This document shows positions 3,777 to 63,143 of a stretch of 63,143 nucleotides of DNA, piece after piece. This DNA is from an uncultured Bacteroidales bacterium (GTDB taxonomy: Bacteria > Bacteroidota > Bacteroidia > Bacteroidales > JAIOZK01): positions 1 through 63,143 of the forward strand of contig CAZJYD010000009.1 of NCBI GenBank assembly GCA_964550205.1. The letters are read 5' to 3'. The stretch's first letter is position 1; every line of letters starts with the position of its first letter. The notes beneath the pieces are model-generated. The model did not search any database, was not told where the DNA came from, and saw only the letters and a list, made by a program, of their open reading frames with translations. The position numbers and the translations under genes were made by a program.

Positions 3777-4970
3777 TCATAAAATTTCCTGATAAAAATC
3801 AATTAATCGTTTTATAATTTTTTTATTGTTATGCTCTTCGTATATCAAATCATGTGCATTATTGCCTACTGATATAACGAAATCAGAGCTTTCAACACAT
3901 TTGCTGATCTCCTGTAAATATTCTTCTGCAGTTTCAGCAATTAAAATATTTTTATTATGTGTATAATTAATTCCTTCTGCTCCAATGCTCGTCGAAATAA
4001 CTGCTTTGCCAAGAGCCATTCCTTCGATGATTTTTATTCTTATTCCGCTTCCCGAAAATAAAGGAACGATCATAATTGCCTTAGAATTGATAAACTCATA
4101 TGCGTCATCCACTTCCCCCACAACTTGTAAATTGGGAATTTTTGAGTTTGTGAGCCAATCTGGCATTTCTCTTCCTGCAAGGTAGAATGAAAGAACAGGA
4201 TACTTTTTATGAACTTCCGGCCAAACATTATGTAAAAACCATCTGATACCTTCAATATTGGGGATCCAGTTCATAGCTCCTATGTGGAAAAGGGATGGGA
4301 ATTCATAGTCTTTTAATGGTTTAGGGAACTTATTGGTATCAATACCAAATGATATATCTTTTATTGGAGTTGAGGTATATTTTTGTAAAATCTCACCATC
4401 TCTTTTAGTAATAGTTGCTATGCCGTCAAATCTTTCAAGTGAAGATATTTCGAATTTCTTGAGTGTTTTTTGTAAATGGTTCAGATATAGTTTTTTTAGT
4501 GGATTTTTAGTTATCCGGGTTATTCTTTGCCATATTAAATGCTCTATATTATGCGCCCGCAGGATGATTTTGGCATCAGAGTGTTTTCTAATAACATCAA
4601 TATACGGAGTAATAAATAAAGTTTCAAACTGGATTATATCGAATTGGTTTTCCCTGAGAATCTTGACAAGTCGTTTTTTTAATGTTTTTGAAATAAAACG
4701 TTGTACATGATAAGATTTACCCGTAAATATATTCAAAAAAGCATCAATGGGTTTTATCGAGAGATCAATATATTCAAGCTCAATGTTGGTCTTTTTACGA
4801 TAGTTTTCAGGTATTTGATCAAAAGAAATGTAATACTTATTTGTATTAATGGCAAGAACCTTGAGTTTGCAATTTGTTTGCAATAGCCCTTCTATAATTG
4901 CATTCATGGCAATCGGACCTCCCTCTTTGGGAGGATAAGGTGATTTATTGCAAATCAGAAGAATGTTCAT
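3777..4970 (-). CDS. Glycosyltransferase family 4
   Basis: PYPPKEGG, HNIEH, SGSGIRIKIIEGMALG motifs; 4-bp overlap with upstream gene. Confidence 0.9.
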   Translation of the reverse strand: MNILLICNKSPYPPKEGGPIAMNAIIEGLLQTNCKLKVLAINTNKYYISFDQIPENYRKKTNIELEYIDLSIKPIDAFLNIFTGKSYHVQRFISKTLKKRLVKILRENQFDIIQFETLFITPYIDVIRKHSDAKIILRAHNIEHLIWQRITRITKNPLKKLYLNHLQKTLKKFEISSLERFDGIATITKRDGEILQKYTSTPIKDISFGIDTNKFPKPLKDYEFPSLFHIGAMNWIPNIEGIRWFLHNVWPEVHKKYPVLSFYLAGREMPDWLTNSKIPNLQVVGEVDDAYEFINSKAIMIVPLFSGSGIRIKIIEGMALGKAVISTSIGAEGINYTHNKNILIAETAEEYLQEISKCVESSDFVISVGNNAHDLIYEEHNNKKIIKRLIDFYQEIL

Positions 4971-30480: not shown

Positions 30481-32091
30481 TTAATCGGGTTTGTCGTGAA
30501 TATATGAATTATTTGATTTGATCTTGGTTTTTTTATCTTTATCCTCGCTCAGTGAGTATTTTGAAACCTGTGAATCTGAAGAGGAGGGGGTATTTTCAAG
30601 TTTTACTTTCTTTCTGATATAAGCCGGTTCATTCTCCAATTCTGCAAGACCTCCAGGTGATCTTAATTTTATACTTAAATCCTTAAGCCTGTTAATTCTT
30701 TCCTGTGCTTTCTTTTCTAATTCATTGCTGTCTTCTCGTTCAACATTTTCTTTTTTATCGTGCTCAATATAGGTGTTATTATCACTATCTTGTTGTTTAT
30801 TTTTTACAGGTTGTTCTGATACTTCGGGAGTCATATTATCGCGATACTTTTTTTCACCCGAGGTGAGATCGAATACAACAGTCTGTTTATTCTCAGATTT
30901 ACCAGTAGTGGTATTTTTGTTCTGATGTTCTGATTCTTTTGTTTTTTCTTCTTGATTAACTTTTTCTTTATCTTCTTCTTTTATTTTCTTTTTTTCTGTT
31001 TCTTCTTTTTTTCTAATTAGTTCGATCTCTTCAGTTTTGTTGTTTTCCCCATCATCAGGTTTTGTCTTTTTATTCTTAAGGTTTTCCGAAAGATGGTATA
31101 TTGTTTTATTCTTATCTCTTTCGGATTTTGAGTCTGAACTAAAACCCGTAGCAACCAAGGTTATACTGATCTTGTTTCCGAGAGATTCATCAAAGCCATT
31201 ACCCCAAATAATTTCCGCATTGGAGCCTGCTTTTTCTTGAATAAAGTCAGTTATATCGCTCACCTCATCCATTGATACTTCTTCTTCACCTGAAGTGATA
31301 TAAAGCAGAATATTACTGGCGCCAAAAATGTCATTATCATTAAGCAGGGGAGAATTAATAGCTGATTCAACACATTCAGCGGCACGGTTTTCTCCCTCGG
31401 CAGTTGCTGATCCCATAATTGCCCTTCCACTTTCTTTCATAACAGTTCTGATATCTTCGAGATCGACATTCATATATCCGGTAACTGTTACAATTTCGGC
31501 GATACCGCGTGCGGCAGTGGTAAGCACATCATCAGCCCGATGAAATGCATCCGATAATTTCAAATCACCGTGAAGAAGGCGCAATTTATCGTTTATAATA
31601 ATCAGCAAAGTATCCACGTGTTCTTTTAATTCTTTAATTCCTTCTTCAGCCTGTAGTTTTCTTTTTCTGCCTTCAAAGGAAAAAGGCATGGTAACAATAC
31701 CTACAGTAAGTATGCCTAGTTCACGGGCAATAGAAGCAATGATTGGAGTTGCACCTGTGCCGGTACCACCCCCCATACCTGCTGTGAGAAATAGCATTTG
31801 AGTATTTTTTTCGAGTAACTCCATAATTTCTTCCCTCTTCTCATTAGCTGATTCACGGCCAACGGAAGGTATTGATCCAGCACCCAGGCCTTTATTTCCT
31901 AACTGGATTTTTGTAGGCACAGGACTGGCCTCCAAAGCCTGAGCATCTGTATTGCACAGAATAAAATCAACACCTTTAATACCTTGATTGAACATGTGTG
32001 TTACGGCATTGTTGCCACCACCGCCTACTCCCATTACCTTTATAATTGAAGACTCATTTTTTGGCAGGTCGAATTTTATCATGTCGTTCAT
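30481..32091 (-). CDS. ftsZ: Cell division protein FtsZ
   Basis: GVGGGGNNA, NTDAQAL, GMGGGTGTG. Confidence 0.98.
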   Translation of the reverse strand: MNDMIKFDLPKNESSIIKVMGVGGGGNNAVTHMFNQGIKGVDFILCNTDAQALEASPVPTKIQLGNKGLGAGSIPSVGRESANEKREEIMELLEKNTQMLFLTAGMGGGTGTGATPIIASIARELGILTVGIVTMPFSFEGRKRKLQAEEGIKELKEHVDTLLIIINDKLRLLHGDLKLSDAFHRADDVLTTAARGIAEIVTVTGYMNVDLEDIRTVMKESGRAIMGSATAEGENRAAECVESAINSPLLNDNDIFGASNILLYITSGEEEVSMDEVSDITDFIQEKAGSNAEIIWGNGFDESLGNKISITLVATGFSSDSKSERDKNKTIYHLSENLKNKKTKPDDGENNKTEEIELIRKKEETEKKKIKEEDKEKVNQEEKTKESEHQNKNTTTGKSENKQTVVFDLTSGEKKYRDNMTPEVSEQPVKNKQQDSDNNTYIEHDKKENVEREDSNELEKKAQERINRLKDLSIKLRSPGGLAELENEPAYIRKKVKLENTPSSSDSQVSKYSLSEDKDKKTKIKSNNSYIHDKPD

Positions 32092-57747: not shown

Positions 57748-60705
57748 ATGAAAAAATTATTTATACTGTTATTTATAGGCGGCTTTATTGTTTTGTTAGG
57801 CTGTTCAAGAGAGAAAACCCCTTATGATTATGTTGACCCATTTATCGGTACTGGCGGACACGGCCACACTTTTCCGGGGGCCACCATGCCTTTCGGAATG
57901 GTTCAGTTAAGTCCTGATACAAGAAAAGACAGCTGGGACGGTTGCTCAGGATACCATTATTCTGATAATACAATTATGGGATTCAGTCATACCCATCTTA
58001 GCGGAACAGGAGTGGGGGATTATGGCGACATACGCTTCATGCCCACTACGGGTGTGTTGAAACTGGATCCGGGAACGGCAGAAGATCCTCAATCTGGCTA
58101 CAGATCAAGGTTTAGTCATCGCGATGAAGATGCTTCTCCGGGATATTATTCGGTTGAGCTGGAAGATTATGATATTGATGTTGAACTCACTGCTACAAAG
58201 CGTTGTAGCTTTCATAAATATATTTTTCCAAAAACCAACAGCGCTCATGTGATTATTGATCTTGTTGAGGGGATTACATCGGATAAGATTGAATTTCTTG
58301 AGATACAGGTTTTAGACGATCAAACCTTCACAGGCATCAGAAAAACAGATGGATGGGCTGATGATCAGCGGATTTATTTTCATGCAGTTTTTTCTAAACC
58401 ATTTTATGATTACGGTATAACGAAGGGTAATAATATTTTTAAAAGCCTTGAAAAAGTATATAGCGATAACATAAAAGCATTTTTCAATTTCAAAACCGAA
58501 AAAAATGAGGAGTTATTGATTAAGGTTGGAATTTCTGCTGTCAGTGTTGAGGGGGCAAGAAAAAACCTGATGGCGGAGATACCAGGATGGAATTTTAGTA
58601 AAATCAGAAAAAATGCGAGGAGAACATGGGAAGAACAACTCAATAAAATTGAAGTTGTAGGAAGCAGGAAAGACAGAACTATTTTTTATACTGCCTTGTA
58701 CCATTGTTTTATAGCACCAAATTTATTCACAGATGTTGACGGGCGGTATCGTGGTCATGATGGTGAACACCATAAGGCTGAAGGTTTTAATATGTATACC
58801 GTTTTTTCTCTTTGGGATACTTTCCGTGCCGAACATCCTTTGTTGACATTAATTGAAAGAGAGCGTACCAAAAATTTTATCAAATCAATGTATGATATTT
58901 ATGAGAAGGGCGGATTGCTTCCGGTGTGGGAACTGGCTGGTAATGAAACCAATTGTATGATAGGCTACCATTCGGTTCCGGTTATAACTGATGCTTATAT
59001 TAAAGGCATCAGGGATTTCGTAGTCAGGGAAACATATGATGCCATGCGCAGAAGTGCTATTGATAATCAGTTCGGACTGAAATGGTACAAAAAGTACGGA
59101 TATATTCCATCCGACAAAGAAGGTGAATCAGTATCAAAAACTCTTGAATATGCTTATGATGATTGGTGCATTGCACAAATGGCCAGGGAGCTTGGAAGAG
59201 AGAATGAATATGAGAAGTACATTGAACGGGCACAGTACTACAAAAATTTGTTTGATAAGGAAACCGGTTTTATACGTGGCAAACGCAACGGAATGTTCAC
59301 TGAACCTTTTGATCCTTCCGAAGTGAACTTTATGCTAACCGAAGCTAATACATGGCAATACAACTTTTTTGTCCCGCAGGATATAAATGGTTTTATTGGA
59401 TTATACGATGGACCTGAAAACTTTACAAAGAAGCTTGATGAAATGTTCAGTGCAAAAGAATATCTTAGCGGGCGTCATCAGGTTGATATAACAGGTCTTA
59501 TCGGGCAATACGCCCATGGTAATGAACCCAGTCACCATATGGCATATTTGTATGATTATGCAGGCGAGCCATGGAAAGCTCAGCATTATGTTCACCGCAT
59601 TATTGAAGAGCATTATTCCGATAAACCTGATGGCTTAAGTGGCAATGAAGACTGTGGTCAGATGTCGGCATGGTATGTATTGAGCTCTTTGGGATTTTAT
59701 CCTGTTACTCCTGGTGATACTATTTATGCCATTGGTACACCCGTTTTTCAGGAAGCCGTAATCAATCTGGAAAACGGAAATGAATTTATAATTAAGGCTA
59801 CGAATGTTTCACCAGGTAATTATTATATACAATCAGCCAGATTGAACGGAGAAGAATACAATAAGTGTTATATATCACATCAGGATATTATGAAGGGCGG
59901 GGAATTGGTTTTCGATATGGGCTCTCAACCCAATAAAAAATGGGGAACAGGCGCCGGCAATATGCCTGTTTCTTTGATTGATGAACATTTAATAACACCT
60001 GTTCCCTTTTTTGATGCTCCATCTCATGCTTTTACAAAACAGATGCAAATTGAGATAAAAGACATACTTGATGATGTAAAAATATACTATACTCTTGATG
60101 GGCAGGAACCCGACAGGAATTCACATCTTTATAAAAAGCCTTTCACTATTGATAAAACAACCGTTATTAAAGCATTTGCCAAAAAGAAGAACATGAAGAG
60201 AAGCAAAACAGTGGAAGCTGAGTTCATTAAGATACCTGGAAACAGGGAGGTTTATCTGAATACGGAATACAGTACGCAATATACCGGAGGTGGTAAAATT
60301 GCATTAATTGACGGTTTAAGGGGAGGAAAAAATTTCAGGGCTGCAGGCTGGCAGGGATATCAAGGATCCGACCTTGATGCAATCATTGATCTGGGAAAAG
60401 TACAAAAAGTGAATAAAATAGCGGTTGGTTTTTTACAGGATCAGCGCTCGTGGATATTTATGCCTCCGGCGCTTGATTTTTATATTTCGGAAGATGGAAA
60501 GAACTACAGGCATATAGGAAAGCTAGAAAACTCAATTTCCCCTGAATACAAAGGTGTAATTATTGATGATTATGTTCTTGATGATATTAACCGCAGGGCG
60601 CGATATGTCAAGGTAAAAGCCAAAAATATCGGCAAAAATCCCGAATGGCACAACAGCCCCGGCAAAAAATCATGGTTATTTGTTGATGAGGTTATTGTTG
60701 AATAA
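57748..60705 (+). CDS. GH92 alpha-mannosidase lipoprotein with C-terminal Fn3-like and F5/8-type domains
   Basis: Lipobox LLGC; HTFPGATMPFGMVQLSPDT, SKTLEYAYDD, HGNEPSHH, GNEDCGQMSAW. Confidence 0.95.
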   Translation: MKKLFILLFIGGFIVLLGCSREKTPYDYVDPFIGTGGHGHTFPGATMPFGMVQLSPDTRKDSWDGCSGYHYSDNTIMGFSHTHLSGTGVGDYGDIRFMPTTGVLKLDPGTAEDPQSGYRSRFSHRDEDASPGYYSVELEDYDIDVELTATKRCSFHKYIFPKTNSAHVIIDLVEGITSDKIEFLEIQVLDDQTFTGIRKTDGWADDQRIYFHAVFSKPFYDYGITKGNNIFKSLEKVYSDNIKAFFNFKTEKNEELLIKVGISAVSVEGARKNLMAEIPGWNFSKIRKNARRTWEEQLNKIEVVGSRKDRTIFYTALYHCFIAPNLFTDVDGRYRGHDGEHHKAEGFNMYTVFSLWDTFRAEHPLLTLIERERTKNFIKSMYDIYEKGGLLPVWELAGNETNCMIGYHSVPVITDAYIKGIRDFVVRETYDAMRRSAIDNQFGLKWYKKYGYIPSDKEGESVSKTLEYAYDDWCIAQMARELGRENEYEKYIERAQYYKNLFDKETGFIRGKRNGMFTEPFDPSEVNFMLTEANTWQYNFFVPQDINGFIGLYDGPENFTKKLDEMFSAKEYLSGRHQVDITGLIGQYAHGNEPSHHMAYLYDYAGEPWKAQHYVHRIIEEHYSDKPDGLSGNEDCGQMSAWYVLSSLGFYPVTPGDTIYAIGTPVFQEAVINLENGNEFIIKATNVSPGNYYIQSARLNGEEYNKCYISHQDIMKGGELVFDMGSQPNKKWGTGAGNMPVSLIDEHLITPVPFFDAPSHAFTKQMQIEIKDILDDVKIYYTLDGQEPDRNSHLYKKPFTIDKTTVIKAFAKKKNMKRSKTVEAEFIKIPGNREVYLNTEYSTQYTGGGKIALIDGLRGGKNFRAAGWQGYQGSDLDAIIDLGKVQKVNKIAVGFLQDQRSWIFMPPALDFYISEDGKNYRHIGKLENSISPEYKGVIIDDYVLDDINRRARYVKVKAKNIGKNPEWHNSPGKKSWLFVDEVIVE

Positions 60706-60723
60706 GATTTCATTGTTTACCAT

Positions 60724-60840
60724 GTGAAACGCTTCGAAGAAGCTGTTTCACTGTGGTTCCATTGTTATACCTTCCGGATCCGCCGGTAGGCGGAGAAGGC
60801 AGGTTCAATTGCTCCATTGTTCGATTGTTTAATTGTTAGA
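60724..60840. repeat. Hairpins and ATTGTT-based octamer repeats downstream of GH92
   Basis: GTGAAAC-GCTTC/GAAGC-T-GTTTCAC hairpin; TCCGCC/GGCGGA hairpin; ccattgtt/cgattgtt/taattgtt units. Confidence 0.55.
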
Positions 60841-61096
60841 CCAAACCCATGTTCATATCGCATTCAATTTACTTTGGGTGTTTTTCAATGACAGGTGATT
60901 TCCTTTTATATGGAGGAGTACCTTTTTTCAAATTGATAAATATGTTGTAAATTGCATGGATTGCTTCATTTCATTTTTGTATAAATTGCTCGTATACGTT
61001 TATAGAATCAAATTCTTTTCTTCGATTTTTTTATAAGGATGCTTTATGTTGTTTGTTCATTATGATTTATCCTTCTATTAAAACGTTTTTTTATTT

Positions 61097-61187
61097 TTAT
61101 AACGCCAGCATCACCGGCGGGAGACACTGCAGAGCGACGATAGGAGCGGCGCAGTGTCTCCCGTCCGCGTGCATGCACTCGTTAGCA
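61097..61187 (-). mobile_element. attC: attC integron cassette recombination site (91 bp)
   Basis: Minus strand R'' TGCTAAC ... R' GTTATAA; perfect 13-bp IR (61118-61130/61151-61163) extended with three unpaired bases on one arm; upstream ORF stop TAA lies inside R''. Confidence 0.92.
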
Positions 61188-62048
61188 TTTTCGTTCGTGT
61201 CCCTGAATCAGGTCGAAAGCCCAGTGGACTGCTTGCGGGTATTCACCGCAGTCAAGCACGAATTCCTGTCCTCGTGCCACTGCCCTAAGCTCTGAACGTG
61301 CCCCAACTTTACCCCATCGGCTAGGATCGGAATGGTACGTCAGCGGTGTTCGCTCCTCGCCGGGATGAAACCAGCCCGGGAGTTCCCAAGTGCTGGTGTT
61401 GTTTGAGTTTGGTGCAGTCAACTGCAAGTCACGCGCGAACTGTGGGAATACTCCCGCACCTGGCAGATTGCCTCCCGCCGCGTGGGCGGTTTCAAGGTAG
61501 CGCCGCGCCAAGTAGACCGTATTGTTGCGGTCATTTCCCCGATGGAAGTGCGGATGGTACTCCGCCCAAGGGTATCCAATGGGCGTTGCTGTGCCGAGCG
61601 ACACAATCTCGCCGACTTGGAACCACCCCCACATCACATGACATGGCTGGCTGTTGGCGGCCCACCGATAGATGCCCTTCCTTCTCTCCACGCAACGAAA
61701 GAGACCAAAGAAGAGAAAGAGGTCACCAACTCCTACGTCACTTTTCCGGAGGTGACCTTGTGCTTGGCCGGTCTGTCCGAAGATTGGTCGCCATCCTCGT
61801 TGGCGGGGAAGGCTGTCCCGGACGATGTCGGGATCGATATGGGCACGATACTTCGAGGGAATACGTCCACCGGTCAGTTCCTCTACAAGCGGGCCAATCG
61901 AGCTGCCCTCGTACTGTATCTCCCCGTATGTGACCAACGACTTCTTGTCTGGAATGGGCAAAGAAACCATCCGCCCATCTGGGAAGATCGGGCTTGGCAC
62001 CCCACCCGCTGATGAGTCGAATCCTTTCCTGCTAAGAATGAGCTTCAT
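61182..62048 (-). CDS. Nucleotide modification associated domain 3 (Nmad3) protein
   Basis: MKLILSRKGFDSSAGGVPSPIFPDG, AHIDPD, FGQ..AQGHL, FLFFGLF, HPH, RGQEFV; ATGA overlap favours start 62048. Confidence 0.82.
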   Translation of the reverse strand: MKLILSRKGFDSSAGGVPSPIFPDGRMVSLPIPDKKSLVTYGEIQYEGSSIGPLVEELTGGRIPSKYRAHIDPDIVRDSLPRQRGWRPIFGQTGQAQGHLRKSDVGVGDLFLFFGLFRCVERRKGIYRWAANSQPCHVMWGWFQVGEIVSLGTATPIGYPWAEYHPHFHRGNDRNNTVYLARRYLETAHAAGGNLPGAGVFPQFARDLQLTAPNSNNTSTWELPGWFHPGEERTPLTYHSDPSRWGKVGARSELRAVARGQEFVLDCGEYPQAVHWAFDLIQGHERKC

Positions 62049-62650
62049 GCCTTTTGTTTCCATGACATATCACTGTACGGCCATTTCGTTGGGGGTGCGC
62101 TGACTCCTTGAGGATATGATGAGATGAACTCCAAGAAGTCGCCAATGGTCTCTCGGGAGAACCGGTTCTTGTGCGCCCGGCCCACCTTCAGTTCTTCCAA
62201 GTCCGGCGGCAACTCCGGCCCTGAAGCCCCAAAATAGTAGAACTTCGTAGCTATGAGGACATTCACTCCTCCCAAGTCATGTGCCTTAGTCCCGGGATTC
62301 TCGTCCTCATCGTTCGAGTGCATGGACCGCAACTGCTGGAAATCCCCATTTGGTAGCGGTTTGTAGATATTGTCCCCTGCCTTCCAGACCACTTCTCCCC
62401 TGCCGTAATCCGGTATCTTGTTGGCAAAACGTGCGTCGCTGTAGTAACTGGCGTAGTCGAGAATCTCATCCACCTCCATGGCAAAGACTACGCGATTCCC
62501 ACTGGCTTTCGGGCTGAGCCCGACGATCCAGTCCCCAACCTCTGCCGTCCGTCGGATTGCCGGCTTGCAATCGGCAAGCGTACAACATCCCCAGAAAGGA
62601 TTGGGAGAGAACCCGGTGTCATGTGTCACGATGTAGGAATAGAGCTTCAT
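62045..62650 (-). CDS. Nucleotide modification associated domain 2 (Nmad2) protein
   Basis: MKLYSYIVTHDTGFSPNPFWGCCTLADCKPAIRR, GDNIY; GGAAGGA SD suitably spaced for ATG 62650 (alternative 62659). Confidence 0.85.
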   Translation of the reverse strand: MKLYSYIVTHDTGFSPNPFWGCCTLADCKPAIRRTAEVGDWIVGLSPKASGNRVVFAMEVDEILDYASYYSDARFANKIPDYGRGEVVWKAGDNIYKPLPNGDFQQLRSMHSNDEDENPGTKAHDLGGVNVLIATKFYYFGASGPELPPDLEELKVGRAHKNRFSRETIGDFLEFISSYPQGVSAPPTKWPYSDMSWKQKA

Positions 62651-62669
62651 GGGTGGCATGTCCTTCCGC

Positions 62670-62700
62670 TGCTAACATATTATTAAGCTGCCAATATACG
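62670..62700 (-). mobile_element. attI: attI site (core G|TTAGCA, crossover between 62676 and 62675)
   Basis: GTT core at the exact AT-rich/GC-rich junction, ~170 bp from the divergent intI start; upstream extent approximate. Confidence 0.8.
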
Positions 62701-62846
62701 TATAATAAACATAATATGCAAGTAAAAAAGTAATCCATATAATACGCTTATTTGTAACAAAAAACTGCAATTTGCGGTATAATATGCTATAATTGTATTA
62801 TTATACGTAAATTTCTAATTATGCGATTTAAATAATTATTGTTATT

Positions 62847-63143
62847 ATGGCAAAAAAATCAAAATTATTAGATCAGGTTCGCCGGGTCATTCGTACGAAG
62901 CATTTCAGATATAGTACAGAAAAGAGTTATGTTGACTGGATATACAGATACATTGTATTTCATGATAAAAAACATCCTGAAGAAATGGGAAAAAAGGAAG
63001 TTTCTGAATTCCTTACTTTTCTTGCTGTTGATAGAAAAGTATCAGCATCTACACAAAACCAGGCATTGAATGCTTTGGTTTTTTTGTATAAAAATGTCCT
63101 GGATAAACAATTAGGTAAATTATCATTTACTTATGCGAAAGTT
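62847..63143 (+). CDS. intI: Integron integrase, N-terminal 99 aa (truncated by window end; absent from ORF track)
   Basis: MAKKSKLLDQVRRVIRTKHFRYSTEKSYVDWIYRYIVFHDKKHPEEMGKKEVSEFLTFLAVDRKVSASTQNQALNALVFLYKNVL matches the IntI N-terminal domain; divergent from attI. Confidence 0.92.
   Translation, partial: MAKKSKLLDQVRRVIRTKHFRYSTEKSYVDWIYRYIVFHDKKHPEEMGKKEVSEFLTFLAVDRKVSASTQNQALNALVFLYKNVLDKQLGKLSFTYAKV

Follow-up and report, generated by a model that had tools for sequence, protein, structure and literature searches.

A mobile two-gene Nmad2-Nmad3 integron cassette in an uncultured Bacteroidales bacterium, a testable candidate for a conflict module

What does a compact, G+C-rich pair of genes beside an integron integrase gene cut by the contig end do, and is it a genuine genetic unit at all? 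The question is raised by the end of contig CAZJYD010000009.1 (assembly GCA_964550205.1), a stretch of 63,143 nucleotides (nt) from an uncultured Bacteroidales bacterium that was analyzed here in full as the window and that is the whole of contig C9 of a 127-contig, 3.18-Mb genome with 34.9% G+C content. On the minus strand, positions 61103 to 62675 form an integron cassette of 1,573 bp that is filled by two genes encoding the domains Nmad2 and Nmad3. An initial annotation had proposed that these genes are a self-sufficient mobile unit and a candidate undescribed system for defense or nucleotide modification. We found that the unit is a genuine, recently acquired, mobile integron cassette, and we present it as a well-delimited, testable candidate rather than a discovery. 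As to its role, we tentatively favor, with somewhat less than even confidence, a conflict module (anti-phage or anti-mobile-element) centered on nucleotides or modified DNA.

The cassette and its integron

The cassette stands out in composition, with a G+C fraction of 0.53 to 0.60 inside 61103-62675 versus 0.24 to 0.43 outside (genome mean, 0.349). Its ends are recombination crossovers, marked here by a slash: G/TTAGC at 62676/62675 and G/TTAT at 61103/61102. The attC site lies on the minus strand at 61097 to 61187, with an R'' box (GCTAAC) that overlaps the Nmad3 stop codon and an R' box (GTTAT) at 61103. The fold of this segment is that of an imperfect hairpin, at -28.2 kcal/mol (z = -5.4), and none of 200 shuffled sequences folds as well; the segment thereby combines the hairpin, the paired R''/R' boxes, and the G/TT end by which attC was recognized. 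The site was also picked up by a custom attC scan and is included in the match to a contig from a separate study (run X3, below). Elsewhere in the window the scan returned only four attC-like candidates (at 31857, 49371, 56752, and 61365) and no further one in the flank that adjoins the cassette; the assembled integron therefore holds a single cassette.

On the other side, 171 nt separate the cassette from the start of an integron integrase gene (intI), and the G/TTAGC insertion lies beside this divergent intI. The 5' part of intI (99 codons, plus strand, 62847 to 63143) is cut by the contig end; residues 1-99 stand alone on the contig, and the remaining part was not found in the genome. The fragment matches TIGR02249 over positions 1-86 of 315 (103 bits) and Phage_int_SAM_4 (E = 8e-32), and its best plasmid matches are annotated as integron integrase (50-61% identity). 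Its closest relatives (62-73% identity) are all in metagenome-assembled genome (MAG) records of Bacteroidota, and full open reading frames (ORFs) of 318-326 amino acids (aa) were found in 7 of the 10 related integrases examined. In the full-length sequences an ALER(KYP)-like patch is present together with HTFRH and YTH, which we take to be integrase motifs. The IntI N-terminus had no match at E <= 1e-15 among 40 host relatives.

The intervening attI region (62676 to 62846, minus strand) has a conserved core at 62676-62752 that ends at the crossover G (62676). Blocks of this attI, including the crossover TAAC/ATAT, are kept about 170 nt upstream of related integrases at three other loci (L302, L310, and L312), and similarity to other copies of the cassette ends exactly at the attI/cassette border. 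The core does not fold as a hairpin (z = +2.06), which one would expect for attI but not for attC. The boundaries and the first position beside attI given in the initial annotation were thus borne out by the junctions, the attC fold, the X3 contig, and the attI of related integrases. Judged by its sequence, the integron is of a Bacteroidota type that captured the cassette from high-G+C lineages. An Rfam scan of 60600-63143 gave no match, and a scan for sigma-70 promoters and terminators did not rise above shuffled sequences, with a sigma-70 model that is ill-suited to this type of host.

The attI core (62673-62752) also recurs three times in another contig of the genome, C59 (locus L182), at about 2885-2947, 3959-4028, and 4517-4596 with 97%, 77%, and 81% identity. 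These copies are conserved up to ATATG/TT (GAT in one) and variable thereafter, and they lie upstream of an aminotransferase gene, a 223-aa ORF, and a 146-aa DUF6036-like ORF. No integrase was found at them, and they are perhaps secondary sites of attI type or relics of a different platform.

Coupling, fusion, and selection of the two genes

The Nmad2 gene (62045 to 62659, minus strand, 204 aa) matches PF18753 at E = 2e-60 (204.2 bits, the gathering cut-off being 26.1, over profile positions 3-198 of 200), and the Nmad3 gene (61182 to 62048, minus strand, 288 aa) matches PF18754 at E = 8.4e-82 (274.9 bits against a cut-off of 27; positions 1-247 of 247). Both domain identities agree with the initial annotation, and all of the motifs that it quoted are present in the translations. 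The true start of Nmad2 is probably the second ATG at 62650, giving a protein of 201 aa, because homologs have 201-202 aa and a GGAAGGA box lies 10 nt before that ATG. The genes share an ATGA stop/start overlap at 62045-62048 on the minus strand (TCAT on the plus strand), an arrangement of translational coupling that had been reported and that can be read directly in the sequence.

This tight arrangement recurs elsewhere. Among 29 pair loci, stop and start overlap by 4 nt in 19 and by another length in 6, and they are separated by 25 nt or less in 3 and by 32 nt in 1. Nmad3 lies directly downstream in 10 of 18 Nmad2 genome loci (the remaining 8 comprise 4 that are cut by a contig end and 4 without Nmad3), and among 531 Nmad3 loci, the best 80 include 29 in which Nmad2 comes before Nmad3. 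Among relatives longer than 504 aa, 50 of 63 are Nmad2+Nmad3 fusions, and two further fusions were confirmed by Pfam. When 135 neighboring proteins of 26 pair loci were tallied, the 25 commonest of 146 Pfam families included no thymidylate synthase, kinase, aGPT-Pplase, or other nucleotide- or DNA-modifying enzyme. The pair is one self-contained two-protein module, and a single fused protein in many organisms; the self-sufficiency proposed at the outset is well supported because of the coupling, the fusions, and a neighbor listing free of modifying enzymes.

Distances of the Nmad2 and Nmad3 proteins correlate (r = 0.71, reached in 0 of 2,000 permutations), a correlation for which shared history may suffice. 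As judged from dN/dS among four close copies (0.08-0.17 for Nmad2 and 0.13-0.30 for Nmad3), both genes are under purifying selection. Prediction of an Nmad2+Nmad3 complex, run without controls, lent no support (ipSAE values of 0.01 and 0.00), a result that weighs neither for nor against a complex. On the Burkholderia plasmid pMBR01 (L119) the gene order is reversed, Nmad3 being followed by an Nmad2-like gene; a metallophosphoesterase and an HD-domain protein flank this pair, which lies two genes downstream of an ArdC-family gene.

Independent copies of the cassette

Copies from other sequences delimit the same unit. Three coded sequencing runs were informative, X1 and X2, which hold most of the window, and X3, which comes from another study. 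A 1,719-nt contig of X3 matches 61103-62676 alone, with 120 differences and unlike loose ends on both sides. Runs X1 and X2 contain a second variant of the cassette with 77 differences in 692 nt (about 89% identical; window 61782-62676), and its contig departs from the window exactly at 62676 and then runs into the sequence that precedes the cassette of a Pirellulales MAG (L010). This variant is part of another array, in which it stands behind the attC found upstream of the L010 cassette.

The 5' junction TTAGCAGCGGAAGGAC follows differing sequences in L010, in the MAGs of Desulfonatronospira (L011) and Desulfohalobiaceae (L012, with ATTAGC there), in L183/L186, and in L184. DNA alignment of the window with L010, L011, and L012 gave 60-100% identity per 30 columns from 62676 to about 61180, and identity of about 50% or lower outside the cassette span. 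The upstream partners are differing attC-like hairpins (z = -7.4 in L011 and -4.95 in L012), and the downstream site of L012 also folds well (z = -5.5). Close Nmad2 relatives were located at 42 metagenome loci, and 31 of these loci hold an Nmad2-Nmad3 pair. Cassette marks were defined as a GTTRRR-type box within 80 nt upstream together with a CTAAC box at the Nmad3 stop; both were present in 15 of the 26 pairs with enough downstream sequence, in 12 distinct contexts, a count that comes without a shuffled control. In a quick tree, the clade with the window's Nmad3 copy spans several phyla on short branches. The cassette is selected for function in at least four phyla. In L011, the Nmad3 gene (1740-2608) aligns in two frames (residues 1-139 and 136-288), which suggests a frameshift or a sequencing error.

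Could the G+C-rich cassette instead belong to another organism and have been misjoined to an A+T-rich contig during assembly? Such an artifact would fit with the second variant present in the same runs in another context, with the repeat of the attI core in C59 (56-63 nt), and with the lack of any listed unitig having at least 31 letters on both sides of 61103 or of 62676. It would, however, require two separate misjoins, both falling exactly at canonical G/TT crossovers, and one of these crossovers belongs to an attI with conserved counterparts beside related integrases. The longest identical run of the attI-core repeat is 56 nt, and unitig depths in run X2 are alike for flank (5.6), cassette (4.9-6.8), and intI (6.6). 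Because of the two exact crossover joins, the short repeat run, and the similar depths, we regard a misjoin as extremely improbable. The linkage of the cassette to attI and intI rests on the MAG assembly, since no listed unitig bridges either junction by 31 nt and the attI core is repeated.

Conserved polar sites and predicted structures

Each protein has a conserved polar site. In Nmad2, the set Y9, D14, N20, C31, K32, R36, D43, Y72, K81, D96, N97, Y99, Q109, D128, and Y142 is kept in 73-81 of 81 diverse rows of the alignment, and the subset Y9, D14, N20, C31, K32, R36, D96, N97, Y99, Q109, and D128 in 76-81. The site is kept in all contexts tested (beside Nmad3, beside TIR, and fused to TIR, NOV_C, or Nmad3); exceptions are D43E in the Burkholderia copy and changes at D14, K81, and N97 in a distant fusion (P0436). 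In Nmad3, the residues S6, R7, K8, G9, F10, D11, D24, Y41, H70, D72, D74, Q92, H99, and D109, and further H137, Q144, H165, H167, N176, H239, Q261, and E262, are kept in 43-49 of 49 diverse rows, down to 30% identity, with the subset S6, R7, K8, D11, H70, D72, D74, D109, H165, and H167 in 46-49. Because of these invariant polar sites, the alignments argue for enzymes or specific small-molecule receptors and not for variable sensors.

The AlphaFold2 model of the window's Nmad3 is confident and mostly beta, with a predicted local distance difference test score (pLDDT) of 93.6 and a predicted template modeling score (pTM) of 0.92; a natural fusion (P0185) was likewise modeled with confidence, as two domains (pLDDT 94.3, pTM 0.78). 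Searches of PDB sequences with the Nmad2 and Nmad3 profiles gave nothing significant; the one match that appeared, weak and local, linked the C-terminus of Nmad3 with the GRK2 PH domain (E = 0.017). Pfam scans for weak matches in all 81 and 44 alignment members returned no second family, and the ESM Atlas yielded nothing but unnamed clusters below 0.9. No kinship between Nmad2 and Nmad3 themselves was detectable (hhalign probability, 1%).

Genomic neighborhoods and distribution

Both families are widespread and patchy. Nmad2 comprises 2,090 clusters at 50% identity, and Nmad3 has 6,374 relatives at 90% clustering; a survey of 401 genomes from the host's phylum found Nmad3 in 9 and Nmad2 in 10, with neither present in 14 control genomes. 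In the neighbor tally introduced above, the commonest families beside the pair are AAA_22 (7), DUF4143/AAA_14 (5), HTH_3 (5), Lactamase_B (4), Gp49 (3), PIN (3), and Cas2 (2); the 135 neighbors also include PDC-S01 (5), NsnC (2), and insertion sequence genes.

The presence of Gp49/HTH and PIN among these common neighbors, and of two small, translationally coupled genes in one cassette, would suit a toxin-antitoxin-like addiction pair that stabilizes the integron array. The proteins are large for such modules, though, and they are fused in 50 of the 63 longer relatives; both have enzyme-like invariant sites, Nmad3 is found without Nmad2, and Nmad2 is found alone or with TIR. We consider an addiction pair very unlikely.

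In six pair loci (L041, L042, L043, L045, L049, and L050, from Nitrospirota, a deltaproteobacterial MAG, and a Thermoguttaceae MAG), an ORF of 393-399 aa lies directly or closely upstream on the same strand. Five neighbor proteins in the tallies are AAA_14 + DUF4143 and PDC-S01, and these may correspond to the 393-399-aa ORFs. Either a third gene linked to the pair or a mere neighbor in an island would account for the ORF.

Nmad2 also occurs fused to TIR and to NOV_C, and in a sister clade, whose members share 33-66% identity with the L141 copy, Nmad2 has different partners. Among the 77 loci of that clade, an undercount given that tblastn was run with few references, genes within 5 kb include TIR at 52, a kinase-like gene at 31, a MazG-like gene at 29, UDG at 8, and Nmad3 at 3. 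On plasmids the operon orders are TIR-Nmad2-nucleoside triphosphate (NTP) pyrophosphohydrolase-UDG and TIR-Nmad2-kinase-radical SAM; on an Agrobacterium plasmid an unannotated gene takes the TIR position, and pyrophosphohydrolase and UDG genes lie further off. The plasmid operons adjoin CBASS, SIR2, and further TIR genes, that is, defense-rich regions. The TIR-Nmad2 operon, found in many phyla (L225-L301, L118, L120, L123, L124, L141, and L142), looks like an undescribed or merely predicted defense system in its own right. A deltaproteobacterial MAG (L018, 10001-15607) combines the pair with a kinase-radical SAM-TIR-Nmad2-like module that lies 1-4 kb further downstream.

A scan of viral contigs with the Nmad3 profile picked up 16 distant loci, of which 2 have an Nmad2-like gene alongside; the same scan with Nmad2 found none. 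The distant Nmad3 genes in viral contigs adjoin a ParB-methylase and an AbiEii-like ATPase, an Mrr-type nuclease (Mrr_cat), an endolysin, and a serine recombinase; others lie at prophage ends. In an archaeal MAG, Nmad3 stands between GmrSD_N and CoiA_N genes.

Comparison with described systems

Phage thymidine hypermodification clusters contain aGPT-Pplase and 5-hydroxymethyldeoxyuridine (5-hmdU) kinase. The window's pair has the Nmad label and a supposed link to base modification in common with them; it differs in that no aGPT-Pplase, kinase, or thymidylate synthase is among its listed neighbors and in that the phage records searched (below) hold no homologs. Another possibility is that the pair chemically alters its carrier's own DNA or nucleotide pool, thereby shielding incoming mobile DNA or marking self. 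The names of the Pfam families suggest a connection with nucleotide modification, the pMBR01 pair lies near an ArdC-family gene, a metallophosphoesterase, and an HD protein, and the conserved Cys-Lys site of Nmad2 could act on a pyrimidine. Yet no methylase, glycosyltransferase, aGPT-Pplase, or kinase stands consistently beside the pair, homologs are missing from the phage records, and no cognate restriction partner was seen, and we hold such self-modification or anti-restriction to be decidedly unlikely.

The predicted TIR-Nmad2-(MazG-like NTP pyrophosphohydrolase/nucleotide kinase)-UDG operons are another parallel. Their Nmad2 belongs to the same family and keeps the same invariant residues, Nmad2 follows immediately on its partner with abutting or overlapping annotated coordinates, and they are patchy and mobile, as is the cassette pair. 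They differ in having a small TIR protein and nucleotide-processing enzymes instead of Nmad3, which lies within 5 kb in 3 of the 77 loci.

Anti-phage integron cassettes have reportedly been described by Kieffer et al. and Darracq et al. (in Science, 2025). Like these, the unit in the window is compact, promoter-less, bounded by attI and attC, in first position, and of foreign composition; unlike them, it sits in an integron of Bacteroidota type and is known from sequence alone.

No PADLOC family (PADLOC-DB 2.0.0) matched either protein at E <= 1, which is in keeping with the novelty proposed at the outset as far as that database reaches, and a literature search found no paper using Nmad2, Nmad3, PF18753, or PF18754 in this sense. 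The DefensePredictor study, in the part of its text available to us, names an "NMAD" domain in one validated Escherichia coli system, together with thymidylate synthase, a deoxynucleoside monophosphate (dNMP) kinase, and a 5-hmdU kinase, and places a "nucleotide modification associated domain", accompanied by MazG, MazG-C, and UDG, among its predicted, unvalidated systems (PMC13092281). That part of the text leaves the Nmad family of these systems unspecified. In another study, a point mutation in the phage gene Nmad5 allowed escape from Tmn (PMC11846954); Nmad5 is a different family from Nmad2 and Nmad3 that has the label in common.

Possible functions

The signs that point to an anti-phage or anti-mobile-element role are circumstantial: the TIR and NOV_C fusions, the TIR-Nmad2 operons, and the Mrr, GmrSD, and methylase neighbors. 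From them we infer the role in defense, and we likewise infer what the substrate is, how Nmad3 folds, and how the two proteins divide their labor. Nmad3 would be the enzymatic part, mostly beta, with a core that is perhaps a PUA-like/EVE barrel of the kind used elsewhere to flip out modified bases, and its invariant His, Asp, Arg, and Lys residues would suit metal-dependent chemistry on a base, a nucleotide, or DNA. Nmad2, with its one invariant polar site, would be the constant partner module, providing a second catalytic step or a gate for Nmad3; elsewhere this module is coupled to TIR, a MazG-like protein, a kinase, UDG, or a NOV_C nuclease domain. We judge unlikely a more specific version, a new class of two-component immunity that integrons carry between phyla. 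In it, an Nmad3 with an EVE-like base-flipping barrel would recognize hypermodified or non-canonical bases of invading DNA, or the nucleotides from which they are made, and remove or convert them, with the Cys/Lys module Nmad2, which the TIR-linked operons also have, as second step or trigger; the target would be the phage's DNA modification, without cutting of DNA. Of the initial interpretation as a defense system, the domains, the coupling, the boundaries, and the self-sufficiency stood; the defense role itself is not established.

Several results weigh against a role in conflict. The neighbor tallies have no baseline, and an enrichment of defense genes is thus not established. None of 50,697 phage records matched Nmad2 or Nmad3, so that these records show no tie to the base modification of phages, and neither protein had a match in PHROGs or NCBIfam. 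Pair loci in isolates and MAGs are mostly without a recognizable attC; a strict attC finder, which is too crude in that it missed sites that fold well by hand, was positive at 4 of 31 loci versus 7 of 186 random positions. Because most genome pair loci lack a recognizable attC, and none of the first 18 Nmad2 loci has a match to the IntI N-terminus within 10 kb, we conclude that the Nmad2-Nmad3 pair lives on integrons and off them.

The evidence on fold also counts on this side. Foldseek of the Nmad3 model against the PDB gave no match at E <= 0.001, and hhalign against an alignment of 30 EVE sequences gave probabilities of 0.5-1.5%. The best Foldseek E value was 0.058, and 7 of the 10 best rows (E = 0.058-0.47, TMq = 0.16-0.24) are of a single kind: two PH1033 entries, MJECL36, the McrB N-domain of Thermococcus gammatolerans with and without 5-methylcytosine (m5C) DNA, and human THYN1, with 5mC DNA and as its DUF55 domain. 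PH1033 and MJECL36 are presumably EVE-like; ATP-sulfurylase and ASCH entries stand lower in the list. In agreement with these rows, a helix-GD-strand-strand motif occurs in both proteins, and hhalign sets it on the EVE core with about 1% probability. The EVE/YTH/ASCH (PUA-like) readers, such as McrB and THYN1, are thus the best, though weak, fold neighbors of Nmad3. Nmad3 is twice their size, carries an invariant His/Asp set that plain readers lack, and has no fused nuclease or GTPase, and the fold match is non-significant. An EVE-like or PUA-like core is what the model may indicate, as a lead and not a result.

A further counterweight comes from solo Nmad3 genes of Halomonadaceae-type genomes. 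Thirty-six of them fall on one side of a branch (support, 86/86; 88% of 200 bootstrap trees), in a group that was defined after the quick tree had been viewed and that, in this quick tree, lies beside the clade holding the window's cassette. Three exceptions to Halomonadaceae are labeled Ketobacter, Ectothiorhodospiraceae, and Halomonas sp. MAG. All 25 key residues are kept in the solo genes without any fixed change, and Nmad2 was absent from the solo-Nmad3 genomes tested (0 of 5). The genes adjoin housekeeping genes, namely a DinG-like helicase, DAHP synthase, an extracytoplasmic function (ECF) sigma factor, LysR, or an AP_endonuc_2-family gene. Because the solo genes are conserved and Nmad2 is absent in five of five tested genomes, Nmad3 can work alone and be retained like an ordinary chromosomal gene. 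In these genomes it looks vertically inherited and non-defensive, which is at least as compatible with an enzyme of repair or sanitation as with immunity.

These genes lead to the alternative that the cassette is an ordinary adaptive, metabolic one for sanitation or repair of DNA or the nucleotide pool, with Nmad3 removing or converting a damaged or non-canonical base or nucleotide and Nmad2 as an accessory subunit that is dispensable in some lineages. The maintenance of solo Nmad3 as one Halomonadaceae-type clade with intact residues, its DinG-like helicase and AP-endonuclease-2-family neighbors, and the purifying selection on both genes agree with this, and the weak fold matches to base-flipping readers equally fit a glycosylase-like enzyme. 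Less easily reconciled with it are the patchy distribution, the travel of the genes between phyla on cassettes, the association of Nmad2 with TIR, NOV_C, SIR2-rich islands, and prophage ends, and a tie to known repair operons that is not conserved beyond one family. On balance we find sanitation or repair rather unlikely.

In four Halomonas loci (L048, L063, L069, and L072), the solo Nmad3 gene lies about 50 nt or less downstream of a same-strand ORF of 713-714 aa. The ORF of L048, the one that was scanned, is a DinG-like helicase (Helicase_C_2, DEAD). The ORF and solo Nmad3 form a possible operon, a hint of DNA repair.

Whichever role applies, the cassette is a natural minimal construct of 1.57 kb, with two genes and recombination-defined ends. 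If the module acts in conflict, as we tentatively favor, it would represent a new enzyme pair for bacterial immunity and a handle on the larger set of TIR-Nmad2 operons; if it is a sanitation enzyme, the Halomonadaceae gene would be a tractable knock-out. Either outcome would give a first function to two so far computational families.

A repeated hairpin near the cassette

A G+C-rich, two-tier hairpin element lies at 60757-60813, 3' of a 985-aa gene, and is repeated in contigs C59 (3086-3139 and 4158-4211), C15, and C30. Because it lacks paired AAC/GTT boxes, it is probably a repetitive extragenic palindromic (REP)-like or terminator repeat and not an attC. At 60783-60837, read depth goes up and several contigs branch in runs X1 and X2.

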